Below are positions 1-29,684 of a stretch of DNA of 32,000 nt, piece after piece (position 1 is the first letter of the stretch; each line of letters opens with the position of its first letter). The stretch comes from Flavobacteriaceae bacterium. GTDB lineage: Bacteria; Bacteroidota; Bacteroidia; Flavobacteriales; Flavobacteriaceae. Position numbers and translations under genes: made by a program. The DNA lies in assembly GCA_965224465.1 (NCBI GenBank), contig OZ245049.1, positions 2,910,001 to 2,942,000 on the forward strand, read 5' to 3'. Under the pieces are notes generated by a model. The model was not told where the DNA came from, made no database searches, and worked only from the letters and a program-made list of their open reading frames with translations.

Positions 1-3000
1 ATGCCAAATCAAAGTAAAAACTAACATGATCATCACGAATATCTGTGAAGTCTGCCTTGCTAGAAGATCTATTAGAAAAACCAGTAAAACGTGTATTCAA
101 AATTTCCCATCCAGAAGGAAAAAACTCGGTCAATGCAATATCTTCTACCAAACGACTTTTCATATTTTCTACTGTTACTACAGCCATAAAATTAGTCCCT
201 TGTTCTAACTGACTTACATCTAACACATTTCCTTTTGTATCCTTATACTTTACACTAATTTTAAGTCCTCTTTCTTCCGTTAATTCCTGTCCTAAAGGCA
301 GTTTCCCAGAATTGATAACCGTTACAAAAACGACCGAAGATCCCGTATTAGATATTTTTAAAGTATTCAAACCATTAACAATATCTAATTTACGTTGTAT
401 TAATGCCTTAGAAGATTTCAAAGCACTTGTTTTTTTATCATTTAACTTAAAATCAACCTCAAAATCTGAACCACCATTTTCCGACACCATCGTCGCCATT
501 GCTAATAAAGAATAGGCGGTAGTTTGAGTACTCATCCAAGTATCAGAAGACAGGTCTTTTGCCAGATTTTTTGCAAGTTCCCTATATCCTTTATTTTTTA
601 GTAAGACCATTGTTTCCATAGCCATTGCAAGGTTTCTAGTCGCAGAACCATAGGTGTAATAATCACGATTTTTAAGTGTAAAATCCATGCCAGCACTATT
701 CACTAATTGTTGGGCAGCCTTAGGTTTACTCGCCAAGGCGTAAGCTGCAGCCAATCGCCATTTCCCAGGATTGGACAATTTACTGTATTCGCGCAACCTA
801 TTCATGGCACTTAAATCGGGACTCCCTGCCAATGCAAGGGTATACAACCTATAAGCTTGCGCCAAATCTGAATAATTATAAGAACTTCCAGCACGCCAAT
901 TTTTAGCTGCTTTTTTCTGATATTTTATCCATTTACTCATAAAGGTTAAAGGAAGCACGTATCCTTTTTTCTCCGCTGCAATCATAAAATGACCTGCATA
1001 GGTAGTTCCCCAGTCGTTGACGTAACTTTGCCCTATCCAGTAACTCATACCTCCATTGGATAATTGAAAACGATTCAATCGATCAATTCCTTTTTGAATA
1101 TTGTTATGAATTTCTTGTTTTTTCTGTAAGCTTAGATCAAAAATAGTTTCCAAAAACAATTGAGGAAAAACACTCGAAGTTGTTTGTTCAATACATCCGT
1201 GAGGATACTGAATCAAATATTTCATACGCTTGGTAAAATTCATAGGAGGCAGTAATGAAAACTCAACAAGAGCCGTATTTGTACCTTCAAGACCAAACGT
1301 AGAGAAGCTCATGGTGTTTGAGGATTTACCGTTCAGATCAAGGCTTAGCAACTTACTACTAATAGGATTAGGGTTTACCACATCCATTTCCACTGCATAA
1401 CTAGCTTTTTTACCATTTCCTTTTGCAATCACTTCAATGGTCTGTATCCCTCTAGATTTTGTAACCTCTAAGTCAAAAAACACCATTTTCTCATCTGGTT
1501 CGGTAAATACTAACTGTTTTGACGCATCACCAATAATACGAATACCATCACTCAATTTCAACCTAACTTTTACATTTTTAACCTTTTTACTCATGGCAAA
1601 AACAGTTACTGGAAGCCTCACCTTTTCCCCAGGGCTTAATTTCCGAGGTAAAGATGCTAAAACCATCAATGGTTGACGCACAGGAGTGCTTTTTTCTGCA
1701 CTTCCATAAGCAGCATTGGAGTTATCAGCGGCCACAATCATGGTACGTACTGCACCGATGTATTTCCCCATTTTAATGTGATGTTTTGCTGTTTTACCCT
1801 TTGCAATGGTAAACGGACCTAAATAAGTTACAACAGGCTTAAAACGGTTTGCTTTTTTGTTTTTAGCACCACTTGCTGCCTCATCACCACCAATGGCAAA
1901 TATTTGATCTAAACTACCTCCAAAAGCACCTATTACATCATCAAACATGTCCCAGGTTTTTACTCCCAGAGCTTCACGTTGATAAAACTGATCCCAAATA
2001 TTAGGTGTTTTAAAACGAGTTAAGTCCAACAACCCCTCATCGACAACTGCAATGGTATAAGTCATTCTTTTCCCATTTTTCTCTTTCACTTTTAGCGTGA
2101 AATTTTCAGAAGGTTTTAATACATCAGGCATTATCAACAACGGTTCTAAACGGGTTGCTGGATCTTCCACCATCAGCGGAATAATCCCGTACATTCTCAG
2201 CGGTAAATCATTGGCTATTTGAGCATGTTTCTGCAATAACGAAATATTTACAAATACATTTGGTGCCATGGCAGCGGTAATTGGAATGCGAACTTGGGTT
2301 TCTCCCTTCGTAGTTTTTTTCCAAAAAGATTGAATTACTTCCGTTCCATTTTCTATACTAATCAAAGCCCTTCCATTGCCCGAAGAAGGAAAGTTTATCA
2401 CAGCCTCTTCACCAACATTATATGTTTTTTTATCCGAAGAGAACAAGAGCATTTTTGCAGATTCTGGATCACTCCCAGCAGGACGTTTCCACCAATCTTT
2501 ATAAAAATAAGTAGTAATCCCAGTTGCATGTCCATTGGCAGGATCTGAAATTCGCACTAAATAACGTCCACCTTCACTGTCCGGTATATTTATTTTAAAA
2601 CTAACTTTACCATTTGCCTTTGTACTAATTTTAAAATTTTGATACGGTTTATGATAACTACTACCTTGATAAGAAGAAAGGTTTTCATAAGAACGATTCC
2701 ACCACCAATGCCATTTAATTTGATACACATCTACTTGTAAATTTTTCTGAGCAAAAGGAGTCCCATCTGCTTTTAAAGTAACAATATCAAAAACGATGTT
2801 TTGGTCTGTATCATAAGAACCATAATTTGTTGTTTTAGGAGATTGTACCCCTACAAAAGAATGGTATGGCGCATATTTCTTTGTCATTACGTCCATAGAA
2901 AAATCACCACCATTTTCATAGGTTCTTGTTAAAAAGGAAGCCAGTAACATCCCTGGAGCTTCGTTATTTAAACGTACTTTCTTATCTAATTTTGCCAATC

Positions 3001-5419
3001 CAGAATCATCTACTTTCCCGTCAAATATGGTCAAATCTTCACTTAGAAACTCACGCGTAGGATCTCTGAAAATATAATTTTCAAACCTCTTAAAAGGTTT
3101 TTGAAGACTCTTAAATTTAACGGCAACCTTTGTTTTTAGATTTTTAGCAATAGCACCATGTAACCACTTAACCGATAATGAACCATTTAAAGATTCTCCA
3201 TCTACCAGAATATCTTTTTCAAAATTGATTTTTATTTTCAAACGGTTCGGCTTGATGGTTTCAATCTTTAAATCCCTTAGGAATTTAACCCCACCAACCT
3301 TTACTAAGGCTTTCCAATTACCTGTTGCTGCATTGGTTTTTGTAGGTACTTGAAATGTATAAAAACCATTCACACTAGAATATAAGGTTTTCTGATAAGC
3401 AAGACCCCCATTTGGATCTGTAACAATAAGTTTAACCGGATGATTTTTAGGAAGCGGATTTGCTTTATCATTTAAAACAAATGTTAGATGTAATGAATCT
3501 CCAGGACGCCAAACACCCCGTTCTCCATACAGATAACCTTTCAATCCTTTTTGAAGTTTTTTACCCGAAACATCAAATTTACTCAAAGACAAGGCACGCC
3601 CATCTTCCAGTTTTAGATATGTTTTATTATCACCTTGAGATACGACAGCAAACGCTGCATGCGCATCCGAATCAATCGTAGCAAACCCATCAGCATCTGT
3701 TTGAGCTCCTCCTATCTCTTGCTGTTGATAATTAAATAATTTGACATTCGCATTTGCCACAGGAATGGTCGTAAGAATATTGGTCACTGCAAAAGAATAC
3801 GACTTATTGGATCCCATTTTAACAATAACGCCCAAATTAGACCCTAACACATTGCAACTAACCACATTTTCATCACTTCCATAATACCCTTCTTTACACG
3901 GGTTTTCTCTATCTCTCCAAGAATAATACTTGCTTTTATATCTATAAATTACATTGTCCCAATACTGTTCTTCTCTTTTTTCTACATCATCAGAGACCTT
4001 TTCTGTATACGAGTCACTATAATAATAATCATCTTCGTCATACTCATCTTCATCAGAACTACCTTCCGCTTGATCACATTTATAAATAGCATCTGATTGT
4101 CGCATGCTCAATTCCACATGATAAATAGCTCCAGGATCTGCCTTTATCAAAGTCGATAAGTCTATGGCATAAGCCTTCCATACCCCTTCATTCGGTTCGT
4201 TTTTTCTTAATAAAGTCACCGTTTTCTTTGCGATGCGACGTCCCACATAACGAATATTAGATTCATGAGAAGTATTCAAATTATTCCGCTGTAAAAACTG
4301 CAAGACATTCGACTCAAATATTTTAATAACTCTCACTTCGACTTTACGCAGATTAACAGCTTCAAAATTTAGTTTTAGATTTTGAGAATCTGGGAGAAAT
4401 ACCCCGTTATCCAACAAGCGAATGGCTGGTTTTAATTGTTCAAAAGCTACCAGTTCCGACCACTCCTTTTTCAATTTAAACCCTTCTTTACTTTTTATTC
4501 CTTGAAAAATATCAACAGTCAAATTCCCTGTCAATTTACGTCCTGGATACACTTTTAATATATTTCCTTGGACGCTGTATCGCAATTTTTTCACTCCTTG
4601 GACAGCCATAAGTCCATTAAAATTCTGACTCTTTTTTATAGGATCTGAAAAATTGACTTGTATGTATTGATTTGGGGATTGAATTACGGATACACTCTGT
4701 ACCGAAAAATTATTTTTCCCAGGAATTAAAATTCTTTTTTCCCCTTTGAGATCTATTCCAAGTTTTTTTCCACTCCACGAAATAAGAACCTGAGAATCGT
4801 CGACACCTCTATGGACACTATCAATAACAAAATTGAAATACTTAGCACTTTCTGATGCATTTGGAAACTTGATTTTTAGTGATTTACCAGCGTGTTCTGC
4901 TTCAATAAGTTGACGTGCATCTTTCAATAAAAAAAGATCTGACGCACTGATTACACCTTCCAAATATTGCCATTCCTTAGAATAGGATTGCAGCTTAGGA
5001 GTGTTTATCCAAAAATCAGATACAATAGTTTTAAAACTAAATTGATATGATTTATGAGAAGATGGTACGTTTGCAAGTAACTTATCCAACTGTACCTTTA
5101 CCGTGTATTCTGTTCCTGGTAACAGGTACTTATTTGGTTTAAAAACCAAGGTACGATTGTTCTTCATAAACAAAACCCCTGCAGTTTTTGGAGAAATTTC
5201 TAAGACATCGTTTTCCAACGGTTTGCTATCTACAAAGTCCACCAAATCACTTGCCATACTTATTTGTATAGGATCTGCAATAGAGATTTCGCCTGCTGTA
5301 GTTCCATAAATATAAGATTTATAGGCATAAATATTGTCAGTTTTAATTTTTTTCTCCTTTCCACACGAAGTGATAAAGAGTACCATCGCTGTTAAAAACA
5401 GCAGTTTTCTAATAGTCAT
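1..5419 (-). CDS. alpha-2-macroglobulin family lipoprotein with thioester motif; C-terminus runs off the left edge of the window
   Basis: Absent from the ORF track because no stop codon lies in the window. The minus strand reads open from ATG 5419-5417 to position 2 (about 1806 codons, spot-checked at several places), and only short antisense ORFs exist on +. The N-terminus MTIRKLLFLTAMVLFITSCGKEK is a signal peptide plus lipobox Cys. QYPHGCIEQTTSSVFPQL carries the CxEQ thioester motif (CIEQ = 1195-1184, in frame with the start). Confidence 0.9.
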   Translation of the reverse strand, partial: MTIRKLLFLTAMVLFITSCGKEKKIKTDNIYAYKSYIYGTTAGEISIADPIQISMASDLVDFVDSKPLENDVLEISPKTAGVLFMKNNRTLVFKPNKYLLPGTEYTVKVQLDKLLANVPSSHKSYQFSFKTIVSDFWINTPKLQSYSKEWQYLEGVISASDLFLLKDARQLIEAEHAGKSLKIKFPNASESAKYFNFVIDSVHRGVDDSQVLISWSGKKLGIDLKGEKRILIPGKNNFSVQSVSVIQSPNQYIQVNFSDPIKKSQNFNGLMAVQGVKKLRYSVQGNILKVYPGRKLTGNLTVDIFQGIKSKEGFKLKKEWSELVAFEQLKPAIRLLDNGVFLPDSQNLKLNFEAVNLRKVEVRVIKIFESNVLQFLQRNNLNTSHESNIRYVGRRIAKKTVTLLRKNEPNEGVWKAYAIDLSTLIKADPGAIYHVELSMRQSDAIYKCDQAEGSSDEDEYDEDDYYYSDSYTEKVSDDVEKREEQYWDNVIYRYKSKYYSWRDRENPCKEGYYGSDENVVSCNVLGSNLGVIVKMGSNKSYSFAVTNILTTIPVANANVKLFNYQQQEIGGAQTDADGFATIDSDAHAAFAVVSQGDNKTYLKLEDGRALSLSKFDVSGKKLQKGLKGYLYGERGVWRPGDSLHLTFVLNDKANPLPKNHPVKLIVTDPNGGLAYQKTLYSSVNGFYTFQVPTKTNAATGNWKALVKVGGVKFLRDLKIETIKPNRLKIKINFEKDILVDGESLNGSLSVKWLHGAIAKNLKTKVAVKFKSLQKPFKRFENYIFRDPTREFLSEDLTIFDGKVDDSGLAKLDKKVRLNNEAPGMLLASFLTRTYENGGDFSMDVMTKKYAPYHSFVGVQSPKTTNYGSYDTDQNIVFDIVTLKADGTPFAQKNLQVDVYQIKWHWWWNRSYENLSSYQGSSYHKPYQNFKISTKANGKVSFKINIPDSEGGRYLVRISDPANGHATGITTYFYKDWWKRPAGSDPESAKMLLFSSDKKTYNVGEEAVINFPSSGNGRALISIENGTEVIQSFWKKTTKGETQVRIPITAAMAPNVFVNISLLQKHAQIANDLPLRMYGIIPLMVEDPATRLEPLLIMPDVLKPSENFTLKVKEKNGKRMTYTIAVVDEGLLDLTRFKTPNIWDQFYQREALGVKTWDMFDDVIGAFGGSLDQIFAIGGDEAASGAKNKKANRFKPVVTYLGPFTIAKGKTAKHHIKMGKYIGAVRTMIVAADNSNAAYGSAEKSTPVRQPLMVLASLPRKLSPGEKVRLPVTVFAMSKKVKNVKVRLKLSDGIRIIGDASKQLVFTEPDEKMVFFDLEVTKSRGIQTIEVIAKGNGKKASYAVEMDVVNPNPISSKLLSLDLNGKSSNTMSFSTFGLEGTNTALVEFSLLPPMNFTKRMKYLIQYPHGCIEQTTSSVFPQLFLETIFDLSLQKKQEIHNNIQKGIDRLNRFQLSNGGMSYWIGQSYVNDWGTTYAGHFMIAAEKKGYVLPLTFMSKWIKYQKKAAKNWRAGSSYNYSDLAQAYRLYTLALAGSPDLSAMNRLREYSKLSNPGKWRLAAAYALASKPKAAQQLVNSAGMDFTLKNRDYYTYGSATRNLAMAMETMVLLKNKGYRELAKNLAKDLSSDTWMSTQTTAYSLLAMATMVSENGGSDFEVDFKLNDKKTSALKSSKALIQRKLDIVNGLNTLKISNTGSSVVFVTVINSGKLPLGQELTEERGLKISVKYKDTKGNVLDVSQLEQGTNFMAVVTVENMKSRLVEDIALTEFFPSGWEILNTRFTGFSNRSSSKADFTDIRDDHVSFYFDLA

Positions 5420-5572
5420 AGTCAATGTTTTTACTATAAAAAAGCATTAATGTTAACCCAACTGGACACATTAATAAATCCCTTATAGAGATGCAATAAA
5501 TAAATAATAATTAAGCTATGAAATTACAATAATTTACAACACAAAAAACACAAACGTTAAAAAAAATAAAAA

Positions 5573-19634: not shown

Positions 19635-21623
19635 TTGAAAACAACGTATACACAAATACTACTCTTATTGACTTGTTTTTCTGTAAATTCCCAAGTAATA
19701 TTACAAGACAGTATTCCTAGAAAAGCACATATAGAATTTGAACAATTAAAGCAGCAATATATCCTAAGATCCGTGGCGCCACCATTGCGACAAATTGCAG
19801 GAGCACCTAAGGCGTTTTACAGCTATTTCTGGGAGTTAGGTGATGGGAATTACAGTTATAAAAAAAACCCGAAACATCACTATAAAAACAAAAAACAATA
19901 CACCGTTCGTCTATCACTTACCAATAATTATGACGATGGACTCCCCCCTACTACACGTCCCATATTACTCAAAAACACATCCGATGTTTCAACTATTTCA
20001 ACAAACGAATCACATTATTTAAACGAAAGACATGACGGATTTAGGCTACTCAGCAATAGAGAACCTATTCCAAATCAGGAAATGGAATTTGTAATTAGTT
20101 ACGGCAATAAATCGCCCCTTCCTAGTCAGGGAAAAATATACTTATTTTACAACGAACGTAAATACAAAAATAACAACTTTGAATTAGTAGCCATACGTAC
20201 CTATCACAACGAACAGGAGGAACTTATGGAAACACTTGCCAACACGTACCTTTCAAAAGAAATGCTTATTCGTACTAGTGGGATAGAAAATATAGTCCCA
20301 GAAAAAAACATAGCCATCGATACCTTAAGTCACAATTTACCAGCTACACTTGCGGAGGCACAAAAGAAATATACAGATGTAAAAGTATGGAACGTAAACG
20401 ATTTAGAAAGCAATGAAGAACGCAACCTGTTTTTAACCTTTAAAACAAGCCCTAAAATGTTGAAGGACACCTCTGCCATTATCACGATCCGGAGCGTTTA
20501 TGTCCCAGAACGCGGAGGAGATACACATCAAATAAGAACAAAAGAAATGGAAATAGTCACCTCTCACGACCCCAATAAAATGGCTGTTTACAATACGTTT
20601 CTGAACTATCGATTGGTGAAATTTAAACGCTTAAAATACAAGATACGCTTTCAAAACAATGGAGAAGGTCCCGCTAGACTGATCAAACTAAATGTAGATG
20701 TTCCAGCCATGTTGGACAAAACATCCCTTAGAATAATAGACATGTACCCCAAAGTACCCATCTGTCCAGAAGGAAAAACAGTAAGATATAGTTGTTTAGA
20801 CACCCTTTTTTATGGCGATAAAATTTCCTTTCAATTTAAAAACATTTACTTACCAGGCACCGAACAAAAAGGGGTTCAAGAAAAAGACTCTACCAAAGGA
20901 TTTGTAAAATACTCCCTAAAATTCGGGAAGGATTTTCATAAAATTAAATCCAAGAGTAAAACCGAAATAATTTTTGACAAAAACGACCCCATCATCACCA
21001 ATTCAGCTAGCTCTAGATTCCTTCCTGGGATATCCATTGGCGCTAAAGCTGGTTACAATTACATCCTAGAAGTAGACAACTCTAAAAGCTATTTTGTGGG
21101 AGCCACCATATCTACTTACAAGGCGTATAAATGGTATCCACAAGCCGAATTAATGATTTCGAATACTTCCTATTCCAAAACAAACAAGCAACAAAACATC
21201 GTAGAAAACATAGATACACCCAACGGGTTTTATAAAAGGATATACAAAGAAAGCACGAGCAATTTAATTACAAAACGCATGGCACTAGATCTAGTACCTG
21301 CTTCTATTCGCTATAACATGAACGGTATGATAGGGCTCGGAATAGGCGCGCATGTTTCTATGGATTATGCCACAAAAATTACAAGTACAAATACAGCATC
21401 ATTTTTTGGCTATCAAAACGGAATTAAGGGAGACCCCATAGAAACATTAAATACACATACAACAAACCATACTGACACCTCATTTAAAAACATAAATTAC
21501 GGTGTTTTTGGTGATCTAACGATAGGTGCTTCACGTATTGGACCAAGTCTAGGGTTTCGTTATATTCATCATTTTAAAACACCCGAAGGACAATTACACA
21601 TCTATGCAATTTGGAAATTCTAA
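19635..21623 (+). CDS. secreted PKD-domain protein with C-terminal outer-membrane beta-barrel-like domain
   Basis: TTG start giving a plausible signal peptide (M)KTTYTQILLLLTCFSVNSQ. PKD signature FWELGDGNYSYKKNPKHHYKNKKQYTVRLSLTN. A middle module SHDPNKM...YKIRFQNNGEGPA...ISFQFKNIYLPG...GFVKYSLKF resembles modules I recall upstream of T9SS sorting domains in Flavobacteriia. The last ~190 aa have alternating beta-strand patterns and end in ...IYAIWKF (terminal aromatic). Confidence 0.8.
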   Translation: MKTTYTQILLLLTCFSVNSQVILQDSIPRKAHIEFEQLKQQYILRSVAPPLRQIAGAPKAFYSYFWELGDGNYSYKKNPKHHYKNKKQYTVRLSLTNNYDDGLPPTTRPILLKNTSDVSTISTNESHYLNERHDGFRLLSNREPIPNQEMEFVISYGNKSPLPSQGKIYLFYNERKYKNNNFELVAIRTYHNEQEELMETLANTYLSKEMLIRTSGIENIVPEKNIAIDTLSHNLPATLAEAQKKYTDVKVWNVNDLESNEERNLFLTFKTSPKMLKDTSAIITIRSVYVPERGGDTHQIRTKEMEIVTSHDPNKMAVYNTFLNYRLVKFKRLKYKIRFQNNGEGPARLIKLNVDVPAMLDKTSLRIIDMYPKVPICPEGKTVRYSCLDTLFYGDKISFQFKNIYLPGTEQKGVQEKDSTKGFVKYSLKFGKDFHKIKSKSKTEIIFDKNDPIITNSASSRFLPGISIGAKAGYNYILEVDNSKSYFVGATISTYKAYKWYPQAELMISNTSYSKTNKQQNIVENIDTPNGFYKRIYKESTSNLITKRMALDLVPASIRYNMNGMIGLGIGAHVSMDYATKITSTNTASFFGYQNGIKGDPIETLNTHTTNHTDTSFKNINYGVFGDLTIGASRIGPSLGFRYIHHFKTPEGQLHIYAIWKF

Positions 21624-21630
21624 ATACCTT

Positions 21631-24294
21631 ATGAAATATCTCTCTGTTGTATGTTGTTGCCTTTTTTCATTAATCATCTTTGCACAAAACAGCAAGAAAA
21701 CTCCTTATTCTAACTATAAAAAAAAAGATGATATAGAGGGGTATATCTACGCAACGATTGATGCCTTTTTAAGAAATTCAAGTACAGAAAACCTTGTTTT
21801 ATTTACAAATTTAGAACAAAAATTATGGAGAAAACCAAGCAGTAAAGCAGAAAAAATAGCTTGGTTACATGGACTCATACAACAAGGATATCAATACAAA
21901 AAATTCGGTAAAATCCCAGCAGCTTTACACGTCTATGAAAAAGCACTCCACTATTACAGAACACAACACTTAACGCGTTATAATATAGTGGAATATTGCC
22001 TACTCCCTATGGCAACAAATTACACGAGATTAGGCGCCTTTGACCGGGCCGAAATCGTTTTAAAAGTAGCGGAAACCAAGGCGAGCAAACAAGCCGACCC
22101 CATAAAATTAGCAGCCGTCTACAACAACCTTTCTATTGTATACCAATCTCAAGGATTGTACCCGAAAGCCATCAAACTTTTAGAAAAAACGTTGAAATTA
22201 AAAGGCTTACCTCAAACACAAAAAGCACGTGTTCTAGGAAATATTGCCATCATAATGATGCGTTTAAATAAACTAGAAATCGCATTAAAATACGCTGAAA
22301 AATCACGAATACTACATCCTAAAAACATAGAACTCACACAAAAACTAGCAAGTATTAAAGCACTTTATTATGAGAATAAGAAGGAATTTATCACCGCAGG
22401 ATCTGAATATAAAAAAGCCATGCTACTTGCAGAAAAACAATTTGGAACTGGCAGTCGAGAACACATAAAATCCAGCCTAAACCTCGCTGACTTTTACCGC
22501 AACCAACAGCAATTAGAAAAAGCATTATTCATATATTCAAACTGTTTAAAAAATCAAAATAACAGTCTCGAAACAATTGACAACAGCCTTAAAAAAATTT
22601 ATGAAGGGATGGGTGATATAGCCTATGAAAAAGGAGAAATAAGCAGTGCAATTGACTCTTATAAACAAGGACTAAAAGCCAACCAAAACCTGAAAGAATC
22701 ATTTGTTTCAGCTATTTCAAAAATAAGACTCCTGGTTGAAAGCAATGCATTAAGCGAAAAAATTATAGCCGCTTATTATGAATTATACACGGTGTCCAAT
22801 AATCAAAAATACGCACTATCTGCTTTAAATATTTCCGAACACAGCAAAGCGAATATCCTCTTAGAGCAACTACAACAAGCATCTATTAATCAATGGGACT
22901 CCAGAGACACTTACAGCAAAGAAACAGCTCTAAAACTACGTATAAATGAGCAAAAACACCAACGGATGCTAGAAGAGCAAAACCATGAATTAGCGAACAT
23001 TACAAAATTAAAACACATCAATAAGCAACTCGACATTCTAAATAATGAGTTGCAATTATTAAAACAGACAAAAGGCCGAATCCCCCTATCAAAACCATCA
23101 GAGATTAAAAAGGAAGAACTACTAAGCATCTTACAAAACAACCAACAATTGCTGATCGAATATTTTGTTGGTTCAGAAGCCGTATACGTATTTTCAATAT
23201 CCAAAAACACAGCACTTACATTTCGTAAAATAAACAACAAAGACCAATTCCAAAAACAACTTCGTAAATTTTACGAACTCTTTGCAGTTGCTGCTGGCGA
23301 AAAAATCAATACTAACATTCAAGAATACAACACGCAAGCATATCAACTTTATGTACAATTGCTACAACCAGAACTAGAAGGCAATACGTATACTTCACTC
23401 ATAATTATCCCCGATGCGGCGATTGGGTTAATTCCGTTTGATGCCCTGCACAACGCTCCTACAAGCAGTAGTGATTTTTCAAAAATGCCCTATGTATTAC
23501 ATCAATCAGAGATTATCTACAATGTATCCATTCAACTAATGCGCATGCATAAAAAACAACCATTGAACCAATCTTTTACAGGTTTTTTTCCCGTTTTTGA
23601 TGTCGAGAACAGCACACATCAACCTTTAAAAAACACACTTACAGAAGCAACAAACATTCATAAAACTATGGGTGGAACGCTATTTTTAAGAAAGAATGCT
23701 AGTAAAGAAAATTTTTTAAAACAACAAAAAACCACTGGTATTTTACACCTTGCCACACATGCGTCTAGTGGTACTGGTCAAATACCTCCATCCATAGAAT
23801 TTGCAGATAAAACACTGTATTTAACGGAATTATACGGCATGCAATTTATGTCACAACTAATCGTATTAAGTGCTTGTGAAACCAACGTAGGCCCCATCTA
23901 CAAAGGAGAAGGGATTTTAAGTCTAGCCCGTGGGTTTATCTATGCAGGCATCCAAAATAGTATCGTATCTCAATGGAAGGTAAACGATAAAGCTACAGAA
24001 TTTTTGATGTCAGAATTTTATAAAAATTTAAAAAAATCTATACCTATTTCAACAGCACTACAGCAATCAAAAGAAGCATATATTTCAAGTAGTAAGATAC
24101 ATCCCTCTAAAAAATCCCCCTATTATTGGGCTGGATTTTCATATATGGGACACTCCGAAAACACCTCAAAAAAACCAATCATATTGTGGAGCATCCCAAT
24201 CACTTTAGCCATCGTATTGATGGGTTTCTATTACACAAAGAAACGACGTGTAAGCAATCAGAAAAATCATTTAGAAACACAGGGGGATTCCTAG
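21631..24294 (+). CDS. TPR-repeat CHAT-domain (caspase-fold) protein with N-terminal signal peptide and C-terminal TM anchor
   Basis: ATG at 21631 gives MKYLSVVCCCLFSLIIFAQNSKK (the track ORF starts at 21604, overlapping the upstream gene). There are about 300 aa of TPR-like repeats and a coiled-coil region. The CHAT core has GILHLATHASSG (His codon 23758-23760) and LIVLSACETNVG (Cys codon 23875-23877). C-terminal TM PIILWSIPITLAIVLMGFYY, then KKRR. Confidence 0.85.
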   Translation: MKYLSVVCCCLFSLIIFAQNSKKTPYSNYKKKDDIEGYIYATIDAFLRNSSTENLVLFTNLEQKLWRKPSSKAEKIAWLHGLIQQGYQYKKFGKIPAALHVYEKALHYYRTQHLTRYNIVEYCLLPMATNYTRLGAFDRAEIVLKVAETKASKQADPIKLAAVYNNLSIVYQSQGLYPKAIKLLEKTLKLKGLPQTQKARVLGNIAIIMMRLNKLEIALKYAEKSRILHPKNIELTQKLASIKALYYENKKEFITAGSEYKKAMLLAEKQFGTGSREHIKSSLNLADFYRNQQQLEKALFIYSNCLKNQNNSLETIDNSLKKIYEGMGDIAYEKGEISSAIDSYKQGLKANQNLKESFVSAISKIRLLVESNALSEKIIAAYYELYTVSNNQKYALSALNISEHSKANILLEQLQQASINQWDSRDTYSKETALKLRINEQKHQRMLEEQNHELANITKLKHINKQLDILNNELQLLKQTKGRIPLSKPSEIKKEELLSILQNNQQLLIEYFVGSEAVYVFSISKNTALTFRKINNKDQFQKQLRKFYELFAVAAGEKINTNIQEYNTQAYQLYVQLLQPELEGNTYTSLIIIPDAAIGLIPFDALHNAPTSSSDFSKMPYVLHQSEIIYNVSIQLMRMHKKQPLNQSFTGFFPVFDVENSTHQPLKNTLTEATNIHKTMGGTLFLRKNASKENFLKQQKTTGILHLATHASSGTGQIPPSIEFADKTLYLTELYGMQFMSQLIVLSACETNVGPIYKGEGILSLARGFIYAGIQNSIVSQWKVNDKATEFLMSEFYKNLKKSIPISTALQQSKEAYISSSKIHPSKKSPYYWAGFSYMGHSENTSKKPIILWSIPITLAIVLMGFYYTKKRRVSNQKNHLETQGDS

Positions 24295-24388
24295 CATATA
24301 AAATAGTAGATTTGAATTCTAAAACGAACCGATGCGATTGAAATACATTCTCAAAAGAAAAGGCTATACGTGCATAAAATTACGCACC

Positions 24389-24784
24389 ATGGCAACCAAA
24401 CACTTGGAACTTAAAGCAAGTATCAATGGCATAAAAGGACGGTTTATTTTGGATACTGGTGCCTCTAACTCTTGCGTAGGTTTTGAAGGTATTGAGAAGT
24501 TTAAATTACAAGCACAAGCATCCGACACCAAGGCTGCAGGGGCTGGTGCCATAGACATGGAAACGAAAACATCGGCAAAAAACACACTCAAAATTAAAGA
24601 TTGGAAATATAACGCTATGCACCTTGTAGTTTTTGACCTAAGCCATGTAAACACAGCATTAGAACAACAATCCGAACATCCTATTGACGGTATTTTAGGC
24701 GCTGATATTCTAGAAAAAGGAAAAGGAATTATAGACTATAAAAAGAAACGCCTATACCTTAAAAAACTAGTTTATAAATTTTAA
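24389..24784 (+). CDS. retropepsin-like (clan AA) aspartic protease, single domain, no signal peptide
   Basis: GRFILDTGASNSCV (Asp codon 24452-24454) plus a distal IDGILGADIL motif. ATG at 24389 gives 131 aa. The alternative ATG at 24332 gives 150 aa. Confidence 0.7.
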   Translation: MATKHLELKASINGIKGRFILDTGASNSCVGFEGIEKFKLQAQASDTKAAGAGAIDMETKTSAKNTLKIKDWKYNAMHLVVFDLSHVNTALEQQSEHPIDGILGADILEKGKGIIDYKKKRLYLKKLVYKF

Positions 24785-24795
24785 ATCACACACTA

Positions 24796-24957
24796 ATTCA
24801 ATTAAAATCCAAAACGATCGATGTAAATAGTTTGTTTAACGATCTAGCATTGTTAAAAAACAGAACGATAGCTATGGTTACCCTTAGATTTTTCGCCTAG
24901 CTAAAATAAAAAATAATTCGATTTCTAAACCGTCACTTAAAAATGTATTTGGTATAA
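24796..24957 (+). repeat. copy A of a ~150-160 bp dispersed direct repeat
   Basis: Aligns by eye with 26027-26190 and 29079-29240. Shared blocks are (C)AATTA/ACAATCCAAAA, TAAATAGTTTG, TCTAGC(A/G)TTGTTAAAAAACAGAACGATAGCTATGG, CCTAGCTA, AAAATAATT, TTTCTAAACC and AAATGTATTTGG. Similarity to copy B continues to ATCAATCGAT (24993-25002). Confidence 0.85.
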
Positions 24958-25047
24958 ACACAATATGGCAACATCCGTATTCATACTCCACTATCAATCG
25001 ATCTCGATAAAATGAGCTTCTGTATAATTACTGGATACATACCATCC

Positions 25048-25653
25048 CTATTTCGACTCTTTTTTATGATAAAAATCGATAGTTTGGGCAATGGCTTCAT
25101 CAAAATTATCCCATGTTTTTTCGTCGTGTAAATCGGTAGAAATAAAAGACTTATTAAACTTAGAGAGCAAGGTGAAATAAATATATCCACCAATCATAAG
25201 TTGAAAGGCATGATTTAAAGGCTTGTTATTTTTATGTCCTTGAAAAATATCACCCATTTGCGAATTTGTAAACTTAAAGAGTTCTTTCGTGTTTTCGTTA
25301 TTTTCAATCAAAGGCCAACGCAATAGTTCTTGAGCGAGGACATTTTCACGCAATTCTTTGGTTCCTTGAGCTGTGATTTTTTTCAAATATTCTATGCTCA
25401 TATCATCACTATCATACTCAATAATAGACTTAAAGAAATCACCTTTTTTAGCCAATTGTAATAACAGTCCCTTCATACCACCAAAATAGCGATAAATCAA
25501 CTCTTTAGAAACACCTGCTTTTTTAGCAATGGCATTAATTCCAACACCTTGGGGTCCTTTTTCTTCTAGTAAGTCAAGAAATGCCGTATAAATACGTTCT
25601 TCGGTAGCGGTACGATCTTTTTTCACGGATATTTGTGGTTTAGTTGCCAGCAA
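25048..25653 (-). CDS. TetR/AcrR family transcriptional regulator
   Basis: HTH GINAIAKKAGVSKELIYRYFGGMKGLL. TTG start at 25653 per the track, with an alternative GTG 9 codons in. No obvious partner efflux or enzyme gene is adjacent. Confidence 0.8.
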   Translation of the reverse strand: MLATKPQISVKKDRTATEERIYTAFLDLLEEKGPQGVGINAIAKKAGVSKELIYRYFGGMKGLLLQLAKKGDFFKSIIEYDSDDMSIEYLKKITAQGTKELRENVLAQELLRWPLIENNENTKELFKFTNSQMGDIFQGHKNNKPLNHAFQLMIGGYIYFTLLSKFNKSFISTDLHDEKTWDNFDEAIAQTIDFYHKKESK

Positions 25654-26026
25654 ATATAAGGAATAGAGAGTAGAATAGCCCTAAGACCTTCTTATGATTC
25701 TTGTTTTTCTTTAACAATACGCTAAAAAAATCATCAAAACACTGAAAATAATGACATTAAACAAGGAAGAAGTAATAGCTCTCGCATTAGAATCCTGATT
25801 CGAATTCTATACAAATCCCCCTCCCAAAACAAAAATCAATTCCTATTTCGTAGATTTTAAAATCAACAAGCACAACTAAAGAATCGGAGCTAAATACCAG
25901 AAAACACCTATAAATCTATCTAAACCGAAGGAAATAAAGCGCATGTGTTTTTTTATATAGGAAAACAACTAGCTTGTCATCACTAAGGTTCCATTATATA
26001 AGGGGACCTAAATAAAAATAATTGAT

Positions 26027-26190
26027 TTATACAGTTACAATCCAAAATGACCAATATAAATAGTTTCTTTTACGTTCTAGCGTTGTTAAAAAACAGAACG
26101 ATAACTATGGCTATCCTAAGATTTTCTACCTAGCTATAACAAAATATAATTCCAATTGTAAACCGCCAACTAGAAATTTAATTGATATGA
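26027..26190 (+). repeat. copy B of the ~150-160 bp dispersed direct repeat
   Basis: Same orientation and block order as copies A and C. It begins TACAGTTACAATCCAAAATGACC. The extension ATCAATCGAT at 26202-26211 abuts the stop of the 26213-26872 gene. Confidence 0.85.
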
Positions 26191-26212
26191 CACCAATTAC
26201 AATCAATCGATA

Positions 26213-26872
26213 TTACAACAAAGATAAGTTCAATACATCTCCCATCTTGATCTCTTTTTTAAGTAATAAAGGATATGTTTCACACATTAATTTAAACATA
26301 TATTCCAAAGGTACTTCATCAAAAGTACCATAATCCTCTAGGTATTCCATAAACGAATTGGCACCTTGGGCATCAAATTCTTGAAAAACAGCATCGGTTT
26401 TCCCATCAAAATCCAATGCATGAACACCCATTTTTTGACATAATTCTTTGTTAAAAGCAGGCGTAGCTTTCACCCATTTCCCTTCTAAAAAAATATCCAC
26501 ATAGCCGTGAGGCACCAATTCGTCTGAACCAAATTTCTCTATCATTTGATCGACAGCAATATGATTTTTAACGCGAGATATTCCCAGTTTTGCAGGGATG
26601 TTTTTTGCTCTTAAAACACTGATTAAAATAATGCTTTTATCCAAACAATGTCCCTCTTTAAGACTGGCAATTTTTGATGATTTCCAATCCTCTTTTTTTA
26701 AGCTAAATCGATACGGAAAATAAGGCCAAAAATCACGGACAAAAGTATAGGCTTTCACTGCAAAATCTAAGTCTGTATCGCTTTCTTTTTTATCTAATTT
26801 CTGAATTATTTCTTGAATTATTTCTGATGAATAATCAAAATAAAATGTTTCTTCTACATGAGATATTTTCAT
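26213..26872 (-). CDS. transglutaminase-like (papain-fold) superfamily protein, cytoplasmic
   Basis: 219 aa. KEGHCLDKSIILISVLRAKNIPAKLGISRV matches the Cys-containing TGase-core motif, and PHGYVDIFLEGKWVKATP matches the His motif. In my by-eye alignment the usual Asp (DPT) position reads Thr (ATP). Confidence 0.7.
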   Translation of the reverse strand: MKISHVEETFYFDYSSEIIQEIIQKLDKKESDTDLDFAVKAYTFVRDFWPYFPYRFSLKKEDWKSSKIASLKEGHCLDKSIILISVLRAKNIPAKLGISRVKNHIAVDQMIEKFGSDELVPHGYVDIFLEGKWVKATPAFNKELCQKMGVHALDFDGKTDAVFQEFDAQGANSFMEYLEDYGTFDEVPLEYMFKLMCETYPLLLKKEIKMGDVLNLSLL

Positions 26873-27860
26873 TTTTTACGCGTTTTTATTTAATAAAATT
26901 GATTAAAAAAAAGATGAAATATCTATTAATAACCTTTCTTTAACACTCAAAACAAGGATTTGTAACCCCTCAGTCACCTACAAGAATATCACTTTTTTTT
27001 ATAATATCAAAATCTACCCAGTAAAGAGAAGCATATTTATAAGCGAAAAAAAGAAGAAATAAACACTCAGAATAAGGGCATCATAAAACAAAAAATAACA
27101 ATCAAAAGATCCGAAAACCACAAGATATAGCACAAACTATTCTTTGATTCTTATACATTGATGAAAACCATACAATTATCATTAAAACAAGTAAAACCCC
27201 ATCCGTTATAGACCTATAAATACTGCTCTTGAACATTTGGATCTGAAAAACCGACTAAAAATAAAATACCAAACAGTATATGCACAATTATAAACACCGT
27301 AAGATCAATAAAATACATCGGATAAAAACACATATACAGTTAGTAAGATACTGATTGGTATAATAACGGTATTTACCCGTTTAACAAAACTCATACTAAC
27401 ACCCTCGTAAAAAGAGTCCCTAGTTTTTATAAAAAGCAGTTGAATTCCTTAAGTACACGTAAGAAAACACCTGTCGATACTTCATAATATGAAGCCTTAG
27501 TAAATCCAAAATCGTTCGTTTAATTTTTAAGATTACTGTAACAAATCAATTCTTTATCCATGGTACATTCTACAATCTAAAACAAAAAAACCATATAACC
27601 TAAAAGTCACATAAAGAAATGAAAATACGCGTTTTATAAGAAAACAAGGATATGGAAGTTTTCTTATAGAATTCAGGATGAAAGAAAAACCAACAAAATC
27701 ATTTCATACAACACGACACATTTTATTAACACTAAAAACATCAGAAGCTTAAAAAACTGAAATAACATGGAGAATAGAGGGGAGCAACAGTTTAGATAAA
27801 ACGACTAAAAAAGGAAGTAGAATAGGGAAAAACAAGTTCAATTTCCTATGAAAAAACGCA

Positions 27861-27892
27861 GGTCTAAAAACCATATTTTAGACCTGTTTTTT
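27861..27892. terminator. bidirectional intrinsic terminator-like hairpin inside the ORF-free region
   Basis: AAAAAACGCA, then GGTCTAAAA (27861-27869), accata loop, TTTTAGACC (27876-27884), then TGTTTTTT. A-run upstream and T-run downstream. Confidence 0.55.
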
Positions 27893-28023
27893 ACGGCAAT
27901 TTCATCACTGATTTGGAGGTAATATTACAGGGTTTATAAGGGGAGAAATCTAAGAGGAAAAATTAAAGAATATTAGCTTTTAAAAACCAACAGAATCTGA
28001 TTGAATAAGGATGAATAAATCCG

Positions 28024-28057
28024 TTTAAATAGTACGGTCAAAATATAACTATTTAAA
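28024..28057. promoter_or_regulatory. inverted repeat TTTAAATAG-N16-CTATTTAAA (stem extendable to 11 bp GTTTAAATAGT/ACTATTTAAAC)
   Basis: 28023-28033 pairs perfectly with 28048-28058. The same 9-mer palindrome arms recur at 29617-29637. Confidence 0.35.
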
Positions 28058-28487
28058 CAATTATTCGTTTAAAATTTTGAGGTGTGTTAGTCTTCGAAAT
28101 ATGGAAAATCAAAAAAAACAGTTACTACTTTTTATACACAAACAAAACACCATGCGTGTCTTTAGGCTACAATTATATTTAAGCGATAAACGATAGTGAT
28201 GGCAATCCCCAGATTAAACCGTATCGATAAAACCAGCATAATCATCTAAAAAAAAGTAAAGGGTAACAGGTAAAATGAAAACGATAAAAATCAAAACCAC
28301 CCCATATTTATTAAATGTGCCCCAAATAATTACATGGAATAGCTTTGATTTGTTCTCATTCCTGCATTCTTAACTCTTATAAAAAAACGTTCCTGATTCT
28401 TATCTTAATACGCACTAGTCATTATTTAATATCAAGCAAAGCTCTTTCTACTTGAAAATCGTTTTATTAAATGCCGTGATCAAACGA

Positions 28488-28829
28488 TCAGCTCCTATCC
28501 TTATATATATATGATGCATCTCCAGACGATAATAGCCAACTACCAATTGATTTTATTGTTTTTGGAAGGACTTCATAACTAATTCCTTCTACTATGTATA
28601 GATATAATGTAAAGCCACTATCATAATAAGTGGCAATCACCTTTTGCTCATCTAAAATAGTTGGAATAATGATACTTGTATTCGGGAAATCATAGCTACA
28701 GGTCATCAAAAAATCATTTTTACTTACAAGACATTCATCATCAAGTAAATAAGCTTTCGTTTGAACGCAAAAAGAATTCCACAGTAAAAAAAAACTAAGA
28801 TCTCTAAAACACAGTGTTTGTTTCATCAA
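28488..28829 (-). CDS. hypothetical small protein (113 aa), hydrophobic N-terminus
   Basis: The only ORF of 60 aa or more between 26873 and 28914 apart from nothing-like fragments. N-terminal MMKQTLCFRDLSFFLLWNSFCVQT may be a signal peptide. No recognisable motif, so coding status is uncertain. Confidence 0.4.
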   Translation of the reverse strand: MMKQTLCFRDLSFFLLWNSFCVQTKAYLLDDECLVSKNDFLMTCSYDFPNTSIIIPTILDEQKVIATYYDSGFTLYLYIVEGISYEVLPKTIKSIGSWLLSSGDASYIYKDRS

Positions 28830-29078
28830 AAAAACTACTTAAAATTAAAAAAGTAAAACAGCCCCATTGGGAACGGATTGTTCTATAAAGTTAGCATACA
28901 ATCCCCTTACTTTTTCAAATAACGCATTTACTTGATAAACGTATGTAATTTTGGCGCGAGCGCATACGAATTGTACATAAAGGAACTTTTATTTTAAAAA
29001 ATAAAGAATAAAAAAGCAGTGTTATAAACCAAAAAAAGGAAGGTTTATAAAAAAGAGAAGGCAACTCTACGAAAGGTA

Positions 29079-29240
29079 TAATACAATTACAATCCAAAAT
29101 AACAGATATAAATAGTTTGTTACCCATTCTAGCGTTGTTAAAAAATAGACGATAGCTAAGACTATCTTTCCCTTTTTAGCCTAGTTAAACAAAAAATAAT
29201 TTTATTTCTAAACCATCATATAGAAATGTATTTGGCGTAA
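29079..29240 (+). repeat. copy C of the ~150-160 bp dispersed direct repeat
   Basis: ATACAATTACAATCCAAAATAACAGATATAAATAGTTTG...TCTAGCGTTGTTAAAAAATAGACGATAGCTAAG...CCTAGTTAAAC...TTTCTAAACCATCATATAGAAATGTATTTGG. Same orientation as A and B. Confidence 0.85.
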
Positions 29241-29616
29241 GAAGTAGGTAAAAAAAACATTATAAACTCATTTTTAAACAACAAAAACCGATGTAAATGA
29301 ACACAGGTTTAATTTTAGACGGCCATTTTTAAAATAAACCACCAACATTCGACAGCTTTTAACCAAAACGGGTGTTTTTTTTACAATCCTTTTGAAAGTA
29401 TCAAGGTTCTTTTTAAAAAAGAGAAGTCCTTATTATATTTTACGCATATATCTAATTGATTCCTACAAAGATATAAGCATAAACCCACGTTATGGCTGTG
29501 TTTATAAAAATAATAAAGTGAATAAAAACACGCTATTTAAATACAGAATTGGGGAATAACTGAAAGTTAATGTGTTCAAATTTCTGAATTCTACACTTGT
29601 TCAAGGGAATCTATAG

Positions 29617-29637
29617 TTTAAATAGAGACTATTTAAA
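29617..29637. promoter_or_regulatory. palindrome TTTAAATAG-aga-CTATTTAAA about 50 bp upstream of the DUF2490-like gene; candidate operator
   Basis: Perfect 9-bp arms (29617-29625 and 29629-29637). An extra half-site CTATTTAAA lies at 29533-29541. Confidence 0.35.
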
Positions 29638-29684
29638 TGAAATTTGCAGAAAAATAAACCACTTAAAAATTAAAGAAGTTAAAA

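Follow-up and report, generated by a model that had tools for sequence, protein, structure and literature searches.

The window analysed here, a stretch of 32,000 nucleotides (nt) from contig OZ245049.1 of a Flavobacteriaceae bacterium, raises the question of why one short non-coding repeat should occur three times, in the same orientation, around the genes for a TetR-family protein and a transglutaminase-like (TGase) protein. An earlier note on this DNA had offered three answers: a family of small RNAs, an element resembling a miniature inverted-repeat transposable element (MITE) or REP sequence, or recombination sites bounding gene cassettes. We conclude that the repeat is very probably a MITE, that is, a non-autonomous DNA transposon, of 156–159 bp that inserts at TAA. 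The second answer is thus the one that the evidence supports: copies elsewhere are flanked by target-site duplications and end in terminal inverted repeats, which the note itself had named as the observation that would make the repeat an ordinary MITE.

The three direct copies lie where the note had placed them, as confirmed by a repeat finder, by a block-for-block MAFFT alignment and by nhmmer (E 1e-40 to 1e-46). Their identity, judged by eye to be about three quarters, computes to 80.6% between copies A and B, 79.1% between A and C and 76.6% between B and C. All three fall outside open reading frames (ORFs) of at least 80 amino acids (aa), which bears out their description as intergenic. The window is AT-rich (~33% G+C) and its proteins are of Flavobacteriaceae type; an 18-nt core block of the repeat has three exact occurrences in it, and four at three or fewer mismatches, compared with 0.56 expected from shuffles. 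Reading copies A, B and C against better-preserved copies elsewhere set the boundaries of their cores, as follows.

24797..24954, + strand: copy A core, 158 nt, a probable decayed MITE copy (nhmmer 153 bits; DNA fold z +0.65; ends match 17/30)
24794..24796, + strand: TAA, left flank triplet of copy A (target-site duplication)
24955..24957, + strand: TAA, right flank triplet of copy A
26030..26187, + strand: copy B core, 158 nt (nhmmer 145.5 bits; DNA fold z +0.02)
26027..26029, + strand: TTA, left flank triplet of copy B, a degenerate TAA
26188..26190, + strand: TGA, right flank triplet of copy B, a degenerate TAA
26191..26212, + strand: CACCAATTACAATCAATCGATA, directly after copy B and reaching the TGase stop codon; by eye it resembles a truncated left terminus, with uncertainty
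29082..29237, + strand: copy C core, 156 nt (nhmmer 131.7 bits; DNA fold z +0.24)
29079..29081, + strand: TAA, left flank triplet of copy C
29238..29240, + strand: TAA, right flank triplet of copy C

Copy A sits between convergent genes, with the stop codon of an aspartyl protease gene at 24784 and that of the TetR gene at 25048, 90 nt from the end of the copy. Copy B occupies the spacer between the TGase stop codon, 22 nt from its end, and the TetR promoter; the left ends with which CACCAATTACAATCAATCGATA was compared by eye are CACCAATTAAAATCC (from L057, a locus described below) and TACAATTACAATCC (copy C). Copy C lies in ORF-poor DNA past a break in synteny, upstream of a DUF2490 gene (Pfam).

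Precise insertion with duplication of TAA

A genome collection was scanned with the best-conserved 18-mer of the element (TCTAGCNTTGTTAAAAAA), which returned at least 73 loci, nearly all of them chance matches. Among the matches listed, a profile search identified the whole element at two loci, L014 in the Flavobacteriaceae metagenome-assembled genome (MAG) NORP129 and L057 in MAG NORP167. The window has the element alone in common with these two loci, at 79–87% identity, with sharp ends and unrelated flanks. A diverged copy, 63–70% identical to the others, follows directly on the TetR stop codon in L076–L079 (also NORP129). In L089–L094 there is none after TetR, and the TGase–TetR spacer holds a 45-nt remnant, AAACTATTTATATCGGTTATTTGGAAATGTATTTGGGATAAG (L089 3211–3255, also in L090–L094), in which a piece like the inner left arm, in reverse complement, is joined to one like the element's right end; it is probably what is left of a copy that once stood where window copy B stands and has been deleted. 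The tally is therefore six independent copies in three genomes, plus one remnant in a fourth lineage. The six occupy five or six loci, depending on how copy A and the L076 copy are counted: both come after TetR, yet their insertion points are 64 nt apart. These two, which were considered as one inherited insertion, are 66.5% identical, so that copy A is no nearer to the L076 copy than the others are (62.6–69.7%). A sensitive profile search of 799 kb of collected sequence found no further copies, scans of metagenomes and viruses with a two-block pattern gave just chance matches within coding sequence, and blastn against plasmid and phage collections gave no match.

The strongest evidence for transposition comes from comparison of filled and empty sites. 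At the 3' end of purF, the filled site in L014 reads GCGTAT-TAA-(159 nt)-TAA-GAAGTAGTGAGATATTAG, and the empty sites read GCGTAC-TAA-GGAGATATTAG in L096 and GCGTAC-TAG-TAAGTTGTGAGATATTAG in L097, whose purF genes are 95–96% identical to that of L014. The left TAA of the L014 element is the purF stop codon, so that duplication of the triplet keeps the stop (L014 5378–5542). In the spacer between ahpC and ahpF, the filled site in L057 reads CTCCTTCCTT-TAA-(159 nt)-TAA-CACCCAGAAAATATG, and the empty one in L098, a related contig, reads CTCCTTACCTT-TAA-CTCATAGAAAATATG. Here the element stands within the ahpC-ahpF operon, 12 nt ahead of the ahpF start codon (L057 1472–1652), and ahpF of L057 is intact (87.8% identity over 490 aa). 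At two independent sites, then, the element has inserted precisely and has duplicated TAA. Presence is also patchy at a third orthologous position, after TetR, which holds a copy in L076–L079 and none in L080–L087 or L089–L094.

The same triplet recurs across the family. Nine of the 12 triplets that flank the six copies are TAA, and the other three are one base off. Because TAA makes up 3.4% of the trinucleotides in the window (frequency 0.034), chance is excluded as an explanation (binomial P ~1e-11). Beyond the triplets, unanchored alignments of the flanks between copies are at chance level; for this reason segmental duplication, in which the copies would have flanks in common, was considered and rejected.

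Termini, folding and history of the copies

Core length varies little across the copies (156–159 nt), and the element begins TAYCAATTAAA and ends TTTAATTGGTA. Its terminal inverted repeats are best preserved in L014, where the left tip TATCAATTAAA matches TACCAATTAAA, the reverse complement of the last 11 nt, at 10 of 11 positions. Over the first and last 30 nt the match is 21/30 in L014 and 19/30 in L057, as good as in none of 500 shuffles for either, and 17–18/30 in A, B, C and L076 (p 0.01–0.05). The tips of L076 differ from those of the other copies yet pair with each other (TACCTAA/TTAGGTA).

The complementarity is not confined to the ends. As single-stranded DNA, L014 forms a single hairpin that runs from end to end, with the termini closing it (-19.9 kcal/mol, z -2.5), and its sequence matches the profile on its own reverse strand (E 4.6e-6); the arms are imperfect mirror images over the full length. 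L057 and L076 also fold better than shuffles (z -3.3 and -2.8), with minimum-energy folds that are more local. When the L014 structure is laid on the six-copy alignment, 80% of the cells pair, versus 33–45% with the partners slid, and five pairs stay paired through changes on both sides (covariation 0.091 versus 0.065 in shuffles, equalled in 4/500). As the mean column identity is 84%, descent from a palindromic ancestor can account for the pairing across copies, and we do not read it as structural selection.

A working definition of prokaryotic MITEs, which includes a size of 50–800 bp, has been set out, and a 2024 census counted thousands of MITEs in Flavobacterium alone (PMC11602168). The present family agrees with this definition in its size and lack of coding capacity (cores of 156–159 nt with no conserved ORF, the start of the one small ORF being lost in C, L014 and L057), in its terminal inverted repeats (at least 10–15 bp in the definition; 10 of 11 tip positions in L014), in its short target-site duplication (2–10 bp in the definition; two filled and empty pairs here), and in its dispersed copies at non-orthologous sites. 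We propose that an intact copy, which encodes nothing, would be able to fold as one long hairpin by means of its imperfect mirror-image arms. A transposase supplied in trans would recognise the ends and insert the element at TAA, duplicating that TAA in the process. By this route the element may have spread among a set of related marine Flavobacteriaceae, most of them uncultured, to which Lutibacter is the nearest named relative. The window copies would be older insertions, now 13–18% substituted relative to the best-preserved copy and with their arm complementarity mostly gone.

The pattern of divergence is consistent with this history. Copies A, B and C are 86.9%, 85.6% and 81.6% identical to L014, and 77–81% identical among themselves; this star-like pattern is expected if a master sequence had inserted separately each time and the insertions had then decayed independently, and not if the copies had arisen by local duplication. 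In addition, the element is 79–91% identical between genomes whose shared genes are 29–66% identical at fourfold-degenerate sites, which indicates that the source of the element is much younger than the split between the hosts. So recent a common source would imply that the element, or a helper, has passed between lineages or that the sequence is under selection; given the empty sites, we favour movement.

Several observations weigh against the MITE interpretation. The sample is small, at six independent copies and one remnant. No transposase with matching ends was found in the window or in the element-flanking DNA examined. The terminal repeats of the window copies are weak (17/30, p 0.016–0.05), and the folds of A, B and C are not better than those of shuffled sequences (z +0.65, +0.02 and +0.24). 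Such z values near zero indicate that these copies are decayed and have lost most of their arm pairing, and for both reasons the assignment of the window copies to a MITE rests on homology to the intact ones. The centre of the element (alignment columns 52–83) is somewhat better conserved than the tips (0.83–0.96 versus 0.64–0.88), which neutral decay alone does not predict. Finally, copy C and L014 have junction bases in common: in both, GTAT(T) precedes the left TAA and GAAGTAG follows the right one.

29075–29081 and 29241–29247 of the window, and 5371–5377 and 5543–5549 of L014: junction bases shared by copy C and L014

In L014 these bases are the native purF flank, and simple transposition does not explain an identity of 7 nt past the right TAA. 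The agreement could reflect a preference for certain targets, carry-over of flanking bases or chance.

Among known elements, the closest in kind are the prokaryotic MITEs such as Correia of Neisseria and RUP of Streptococcus pneumoniae, which are likewise non-coding, ~100–200 bp long, bounded by terminal inverted repeats and a short fixed target duplication, intergenic or 3' of genes, present in several copies per genome and patchy among relatives. A sequence relation to any named element could not be shown, and Correia and RUP duplicate TA, as do IS630/mariner-type elements, whereas the window element duplicates TAA. A 3-bp duplication recalls instead the Tourist-like MITEs of the PIF-Harbinger-IS5 group, for which TAA/TTA is the usual triplet; some IS5 subgroups also make 3-bp duplications. 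PIF/Harbinger elements are reported to produce a 3-bp target-site duplication, which is their hallmark (PMC2213677). A link of our element to the IS5/PIF-Harbinger superfamily, drawn from the duplication alone, would be an analogy only.

Competing explanations

The better-conserved centre leaves room for a function in addition to mobility. In one such scheme, which we regard as unlikely, the element is a mobile module under selection that moves between species: its conserved centre (TCTAGCRTTGTTAAAAAAYAGAACGATAGC together with a GATAGC/GCTATC apex hairpin) would serve as a binding site for a protein or as a regulatory RNA and would be carried to stop codons and to spacers within operons, such as the purF stop and the position 12 nt before the ahpF start. 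A module of this kind would explain how copies can be 79–91% identical across genomes in which silent sites are near saturation.

It is also conceivable, but quite improbable, that the repeat is a palindromic intergenic sequence of whatever origin that the host maintains for a structural or regulatory role, for example mRNA stabilisation or termination, in the manner of ERIC or REP sequences. ERIC/IRU sequences of enterobacteria are non-coding imperfect palindromes of ~130–160 nt in transcribed intergenic regions, and the window element family is likewise a non-coding imperfect palindrome. The enterobacteria belong to another phylum, similarity in sequence is not expected, and insertion with target duplication is directly shown for the window element family. 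Maintenance by the host would fit the palindrome that spans the whole element, the location of A, B, L014, L057 and L076 at gene 3' ends or in operon spacers, the cross-genome identity above the neutral level and the five pairs kept by double changes. Yet the pairing is explicable by the palindromic ancestor noted above, and the shuffle control behind the covariation figure carries a caveat; moreover, A, B and C have lost the fold, so that no structural selection is visible in the window, and close relatives have no element at the corresponding sites. This explanation does not exclude a MITE origin, with which it is compatible and to which it adds a function.

We consider it very unlikely that the copies are paralogous small-RNA genes of ~100 nt, each with a Bacteroidetes-type promoter (the TAGTTTG box) and a 3' hairpin terminator. 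The internal features listed in the earlier note hold up unevenly. The TAGTTTG box is exact in A and C and reads TAGTTTC in B, its last base varying among G, C and A across the copies. Of the CGTTCT/AGAACG stem, B has an exact version, A one with a single mismatch and C a broken one; the 3' hairpin can pair in A (7/8) and in C (7/7) and is broken in B. These stems thus show mismatches instead of compensatory changes, and covariation lends them no support. The eight-codon mini-ORFs are present in A and B at the positions described, but the ATG is AAG in C, L014 and L057. Copies A, B and C lack an exact TAnnTTTG element on both strands, compared with 52 exact sites in the whole window and a perfect one at the TetR promoter, outside the repeat.

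25643..25661, - strand: block CCTTATATTTGCTGGCAAC of the TetR promoter, conserved in all relatives; its TAnnTTTG is exact and precedes the GTG start by ~25 nt

Searches for RNA features gave a similar picture. Rfam had nothing at the gathering threshold in the window and nothing at E<=10 in 24700–29350, a tRNA/tmRNA search found none, and a promoter and terminator scan returned nothing specific to the copies and called no terminator-like site in any of them. Folding the three window copies to an RNA consensus gave a weak structure (-6.9 kcal/mol) in which none of the pairs is compensatory. For the intact L014 copy (E<=10), the best Rfam entry was the Flavo-1 RNA (RF01705), a non-coding motif that is, like the element, restricted to Flavobacteria. 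This match lies on the opposite strand of L014, covers part of the model (13–65 of 76) and scores 16.8 bits versus a gathering threshold of 42 (E 0.55); the window copies gave no hit, and the element is not a member. What can be said for small-RNA genes is that the centre is the best-conserved part of the element, that a local hairpin (ATTTCTAA...TTAGAAAT) is pairable in five of the six copies, and that selection on an RNA could also raise cross-genome identity above neutral. Non-orthologous sites, empty sites in close relatives and the TAA duplication, on the other hand, indicate insertion and not gene inheritance. With neither an exact promoter element nor a conserved mini-ORF start nor an Rfam match at threshold, the small-RNA proposal finds no positive support.

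Gene neighbourhood and meaning of the element

The remaining proposal concerns the genes between the copies, which the cassette-like spacing had suggested were acquired cargo.

25048..25626, - strand: TetR-family gene, 192 aa from GTG, core syntenic (Pfam; 92–93% aa identity to relatives)
26213..26872, - strand: TGase gene, 219 aa, core syntenic (Pfam; homologues; synteny)

Syntenic loci in six related lineages were reached through homologues of the TGase protein. All six relatives keep the order TGase, TetR, a 244-aa gene, (S8 peptidase), Asp protease, CHAT-TPR and PKD/DUF7849, which continues to TatD, MGMT, carbonic anhydrase, SulP, TetR and Dus, and the window is colinear with them from ~11.2 kb to 26,887. 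Their TGase and TetR orthologues are 82–93% identical in aa sequence to those of the window. In the relatives the TGase–TetR spacer is 98–261 nt and lacks the element. The spacer from TetR to the next gene is ~55 nt in the relatives and holds a small hairpin, CAGTAATT...AATTACTG, inside which the L076 element is inserted. The window encodes no integrase, recombinase or transposase, and attC-type core sites (RYYYAAC/GTTRRRY) are absent from the ends of the element. Synteny, orthology and the lack of integrase and attC sites together indicate that the genes between the copies are residents, not cassettes.

That the copies are attC-like recombination sites bounding TGase and TetR cassettes is therefore extremely improbable. 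In favour of such sites, both genes have a like-oriented copy behind them when read on the minus strand, and attC sites, like the element, are imperfect palindromes. Against them, TGase, TetR, the 244-aa gene, Asp protease and CHAT form one block in six lineages, of which one has a copy after TetR, another just the 45-nt remnant and most no element at these positions; their genes are orthologues instead of variable cargo; elsewhere the element occurs by itself, at the stop codon of purF and within the ahpCF operon; and there were no plasmid or phage matches.

The stretch that holds the three copies has, as judged from comparison with the relatives, lost genes. The 244-aa gene, which is Phenol_MetA_deg-like, lies between TetR and Asp protease in 6/6 relatives (L076 7054–7788, L080 11558–12292, L084 11510–12244). 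It is missing from window 24785–25047, where tblastn detected no remnant and where copy A and 64 nt of unrelated DNA are found. Upstream of TGase the relatives carry fadA-fadB-acd, the last encoding an acyl-CoA dehydrogenase (L080 3974–9259). Window 26873–29684 lacks this fad operon: in its place, 1.6 kb of DNA free of ORFs is followed by a 113-aa orphan ORF, copy C, DUF2490 and the gene for an alpha-type carbonic anhydrase. The ORF-free stretch (26873–28487, no ORF of at least 45 aa) starts just past the point upstream of TGase at which synteny breaks off. Its + strand is rich in A (AT skew +0.26 to +0.30), and it includes a terminator-like two-way hairpin with a 12-bp stem at 27858–27887; no pseudogene remnants of the fad operon or of the 244-aa gene were detected in the ORF-free window DNA. 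The last conserved piece before synteny ends is a 54-nt block at 26959–27012, upstream of the TGase gene, which is 89% identical to the equivalent position in L089–L094 and is probably the TGase promoter or leader.

Three further observations concern the surrounding DNA. Window 19635–24784 encodes a PKD/DUF7619/DUF7849 protein, an 896-aa TPR-CHAT protein and a small retropepsin-like aspartyl protease, a conserved cluster whose synteny holds in every relative. At the left edge, an ORF for a bacterial alpha-2-macroglobulin (window 2–5446, - strand; more than 1815 aa) continues beyond the window. At L014 1760–2970, ~99-nt tandem repeats (70–86% identity) lie inside a 1250-aa ORF beside an fn3-domain gene.

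The repeat thus belongs to an unnamed MITE family that duplicates TAA, an ordinary kind of element, of which the window holds three old, eroded copies. Its recognition guards against annotating such repeats as small-RNA genes or cassette boundaries, and the window copies are useful as markers of a rearranged, gene-losing region. For the poorly studied marine and subseafloor Flavobacteriaceae it adds one such family, a finding of little weight beyond annotation. Two consequences nevertheless bear on the biology of these bacteria. Insertions on the purF stop codon and 12 nt before the ahpF start could alter expression of the genes concerned. Moreover, copies that are more alike between genomes than silent sites suggest that the element, presumably mobilised by a trans-acting transposase, or a helper insertion sequence, may have moved recently between lineages.

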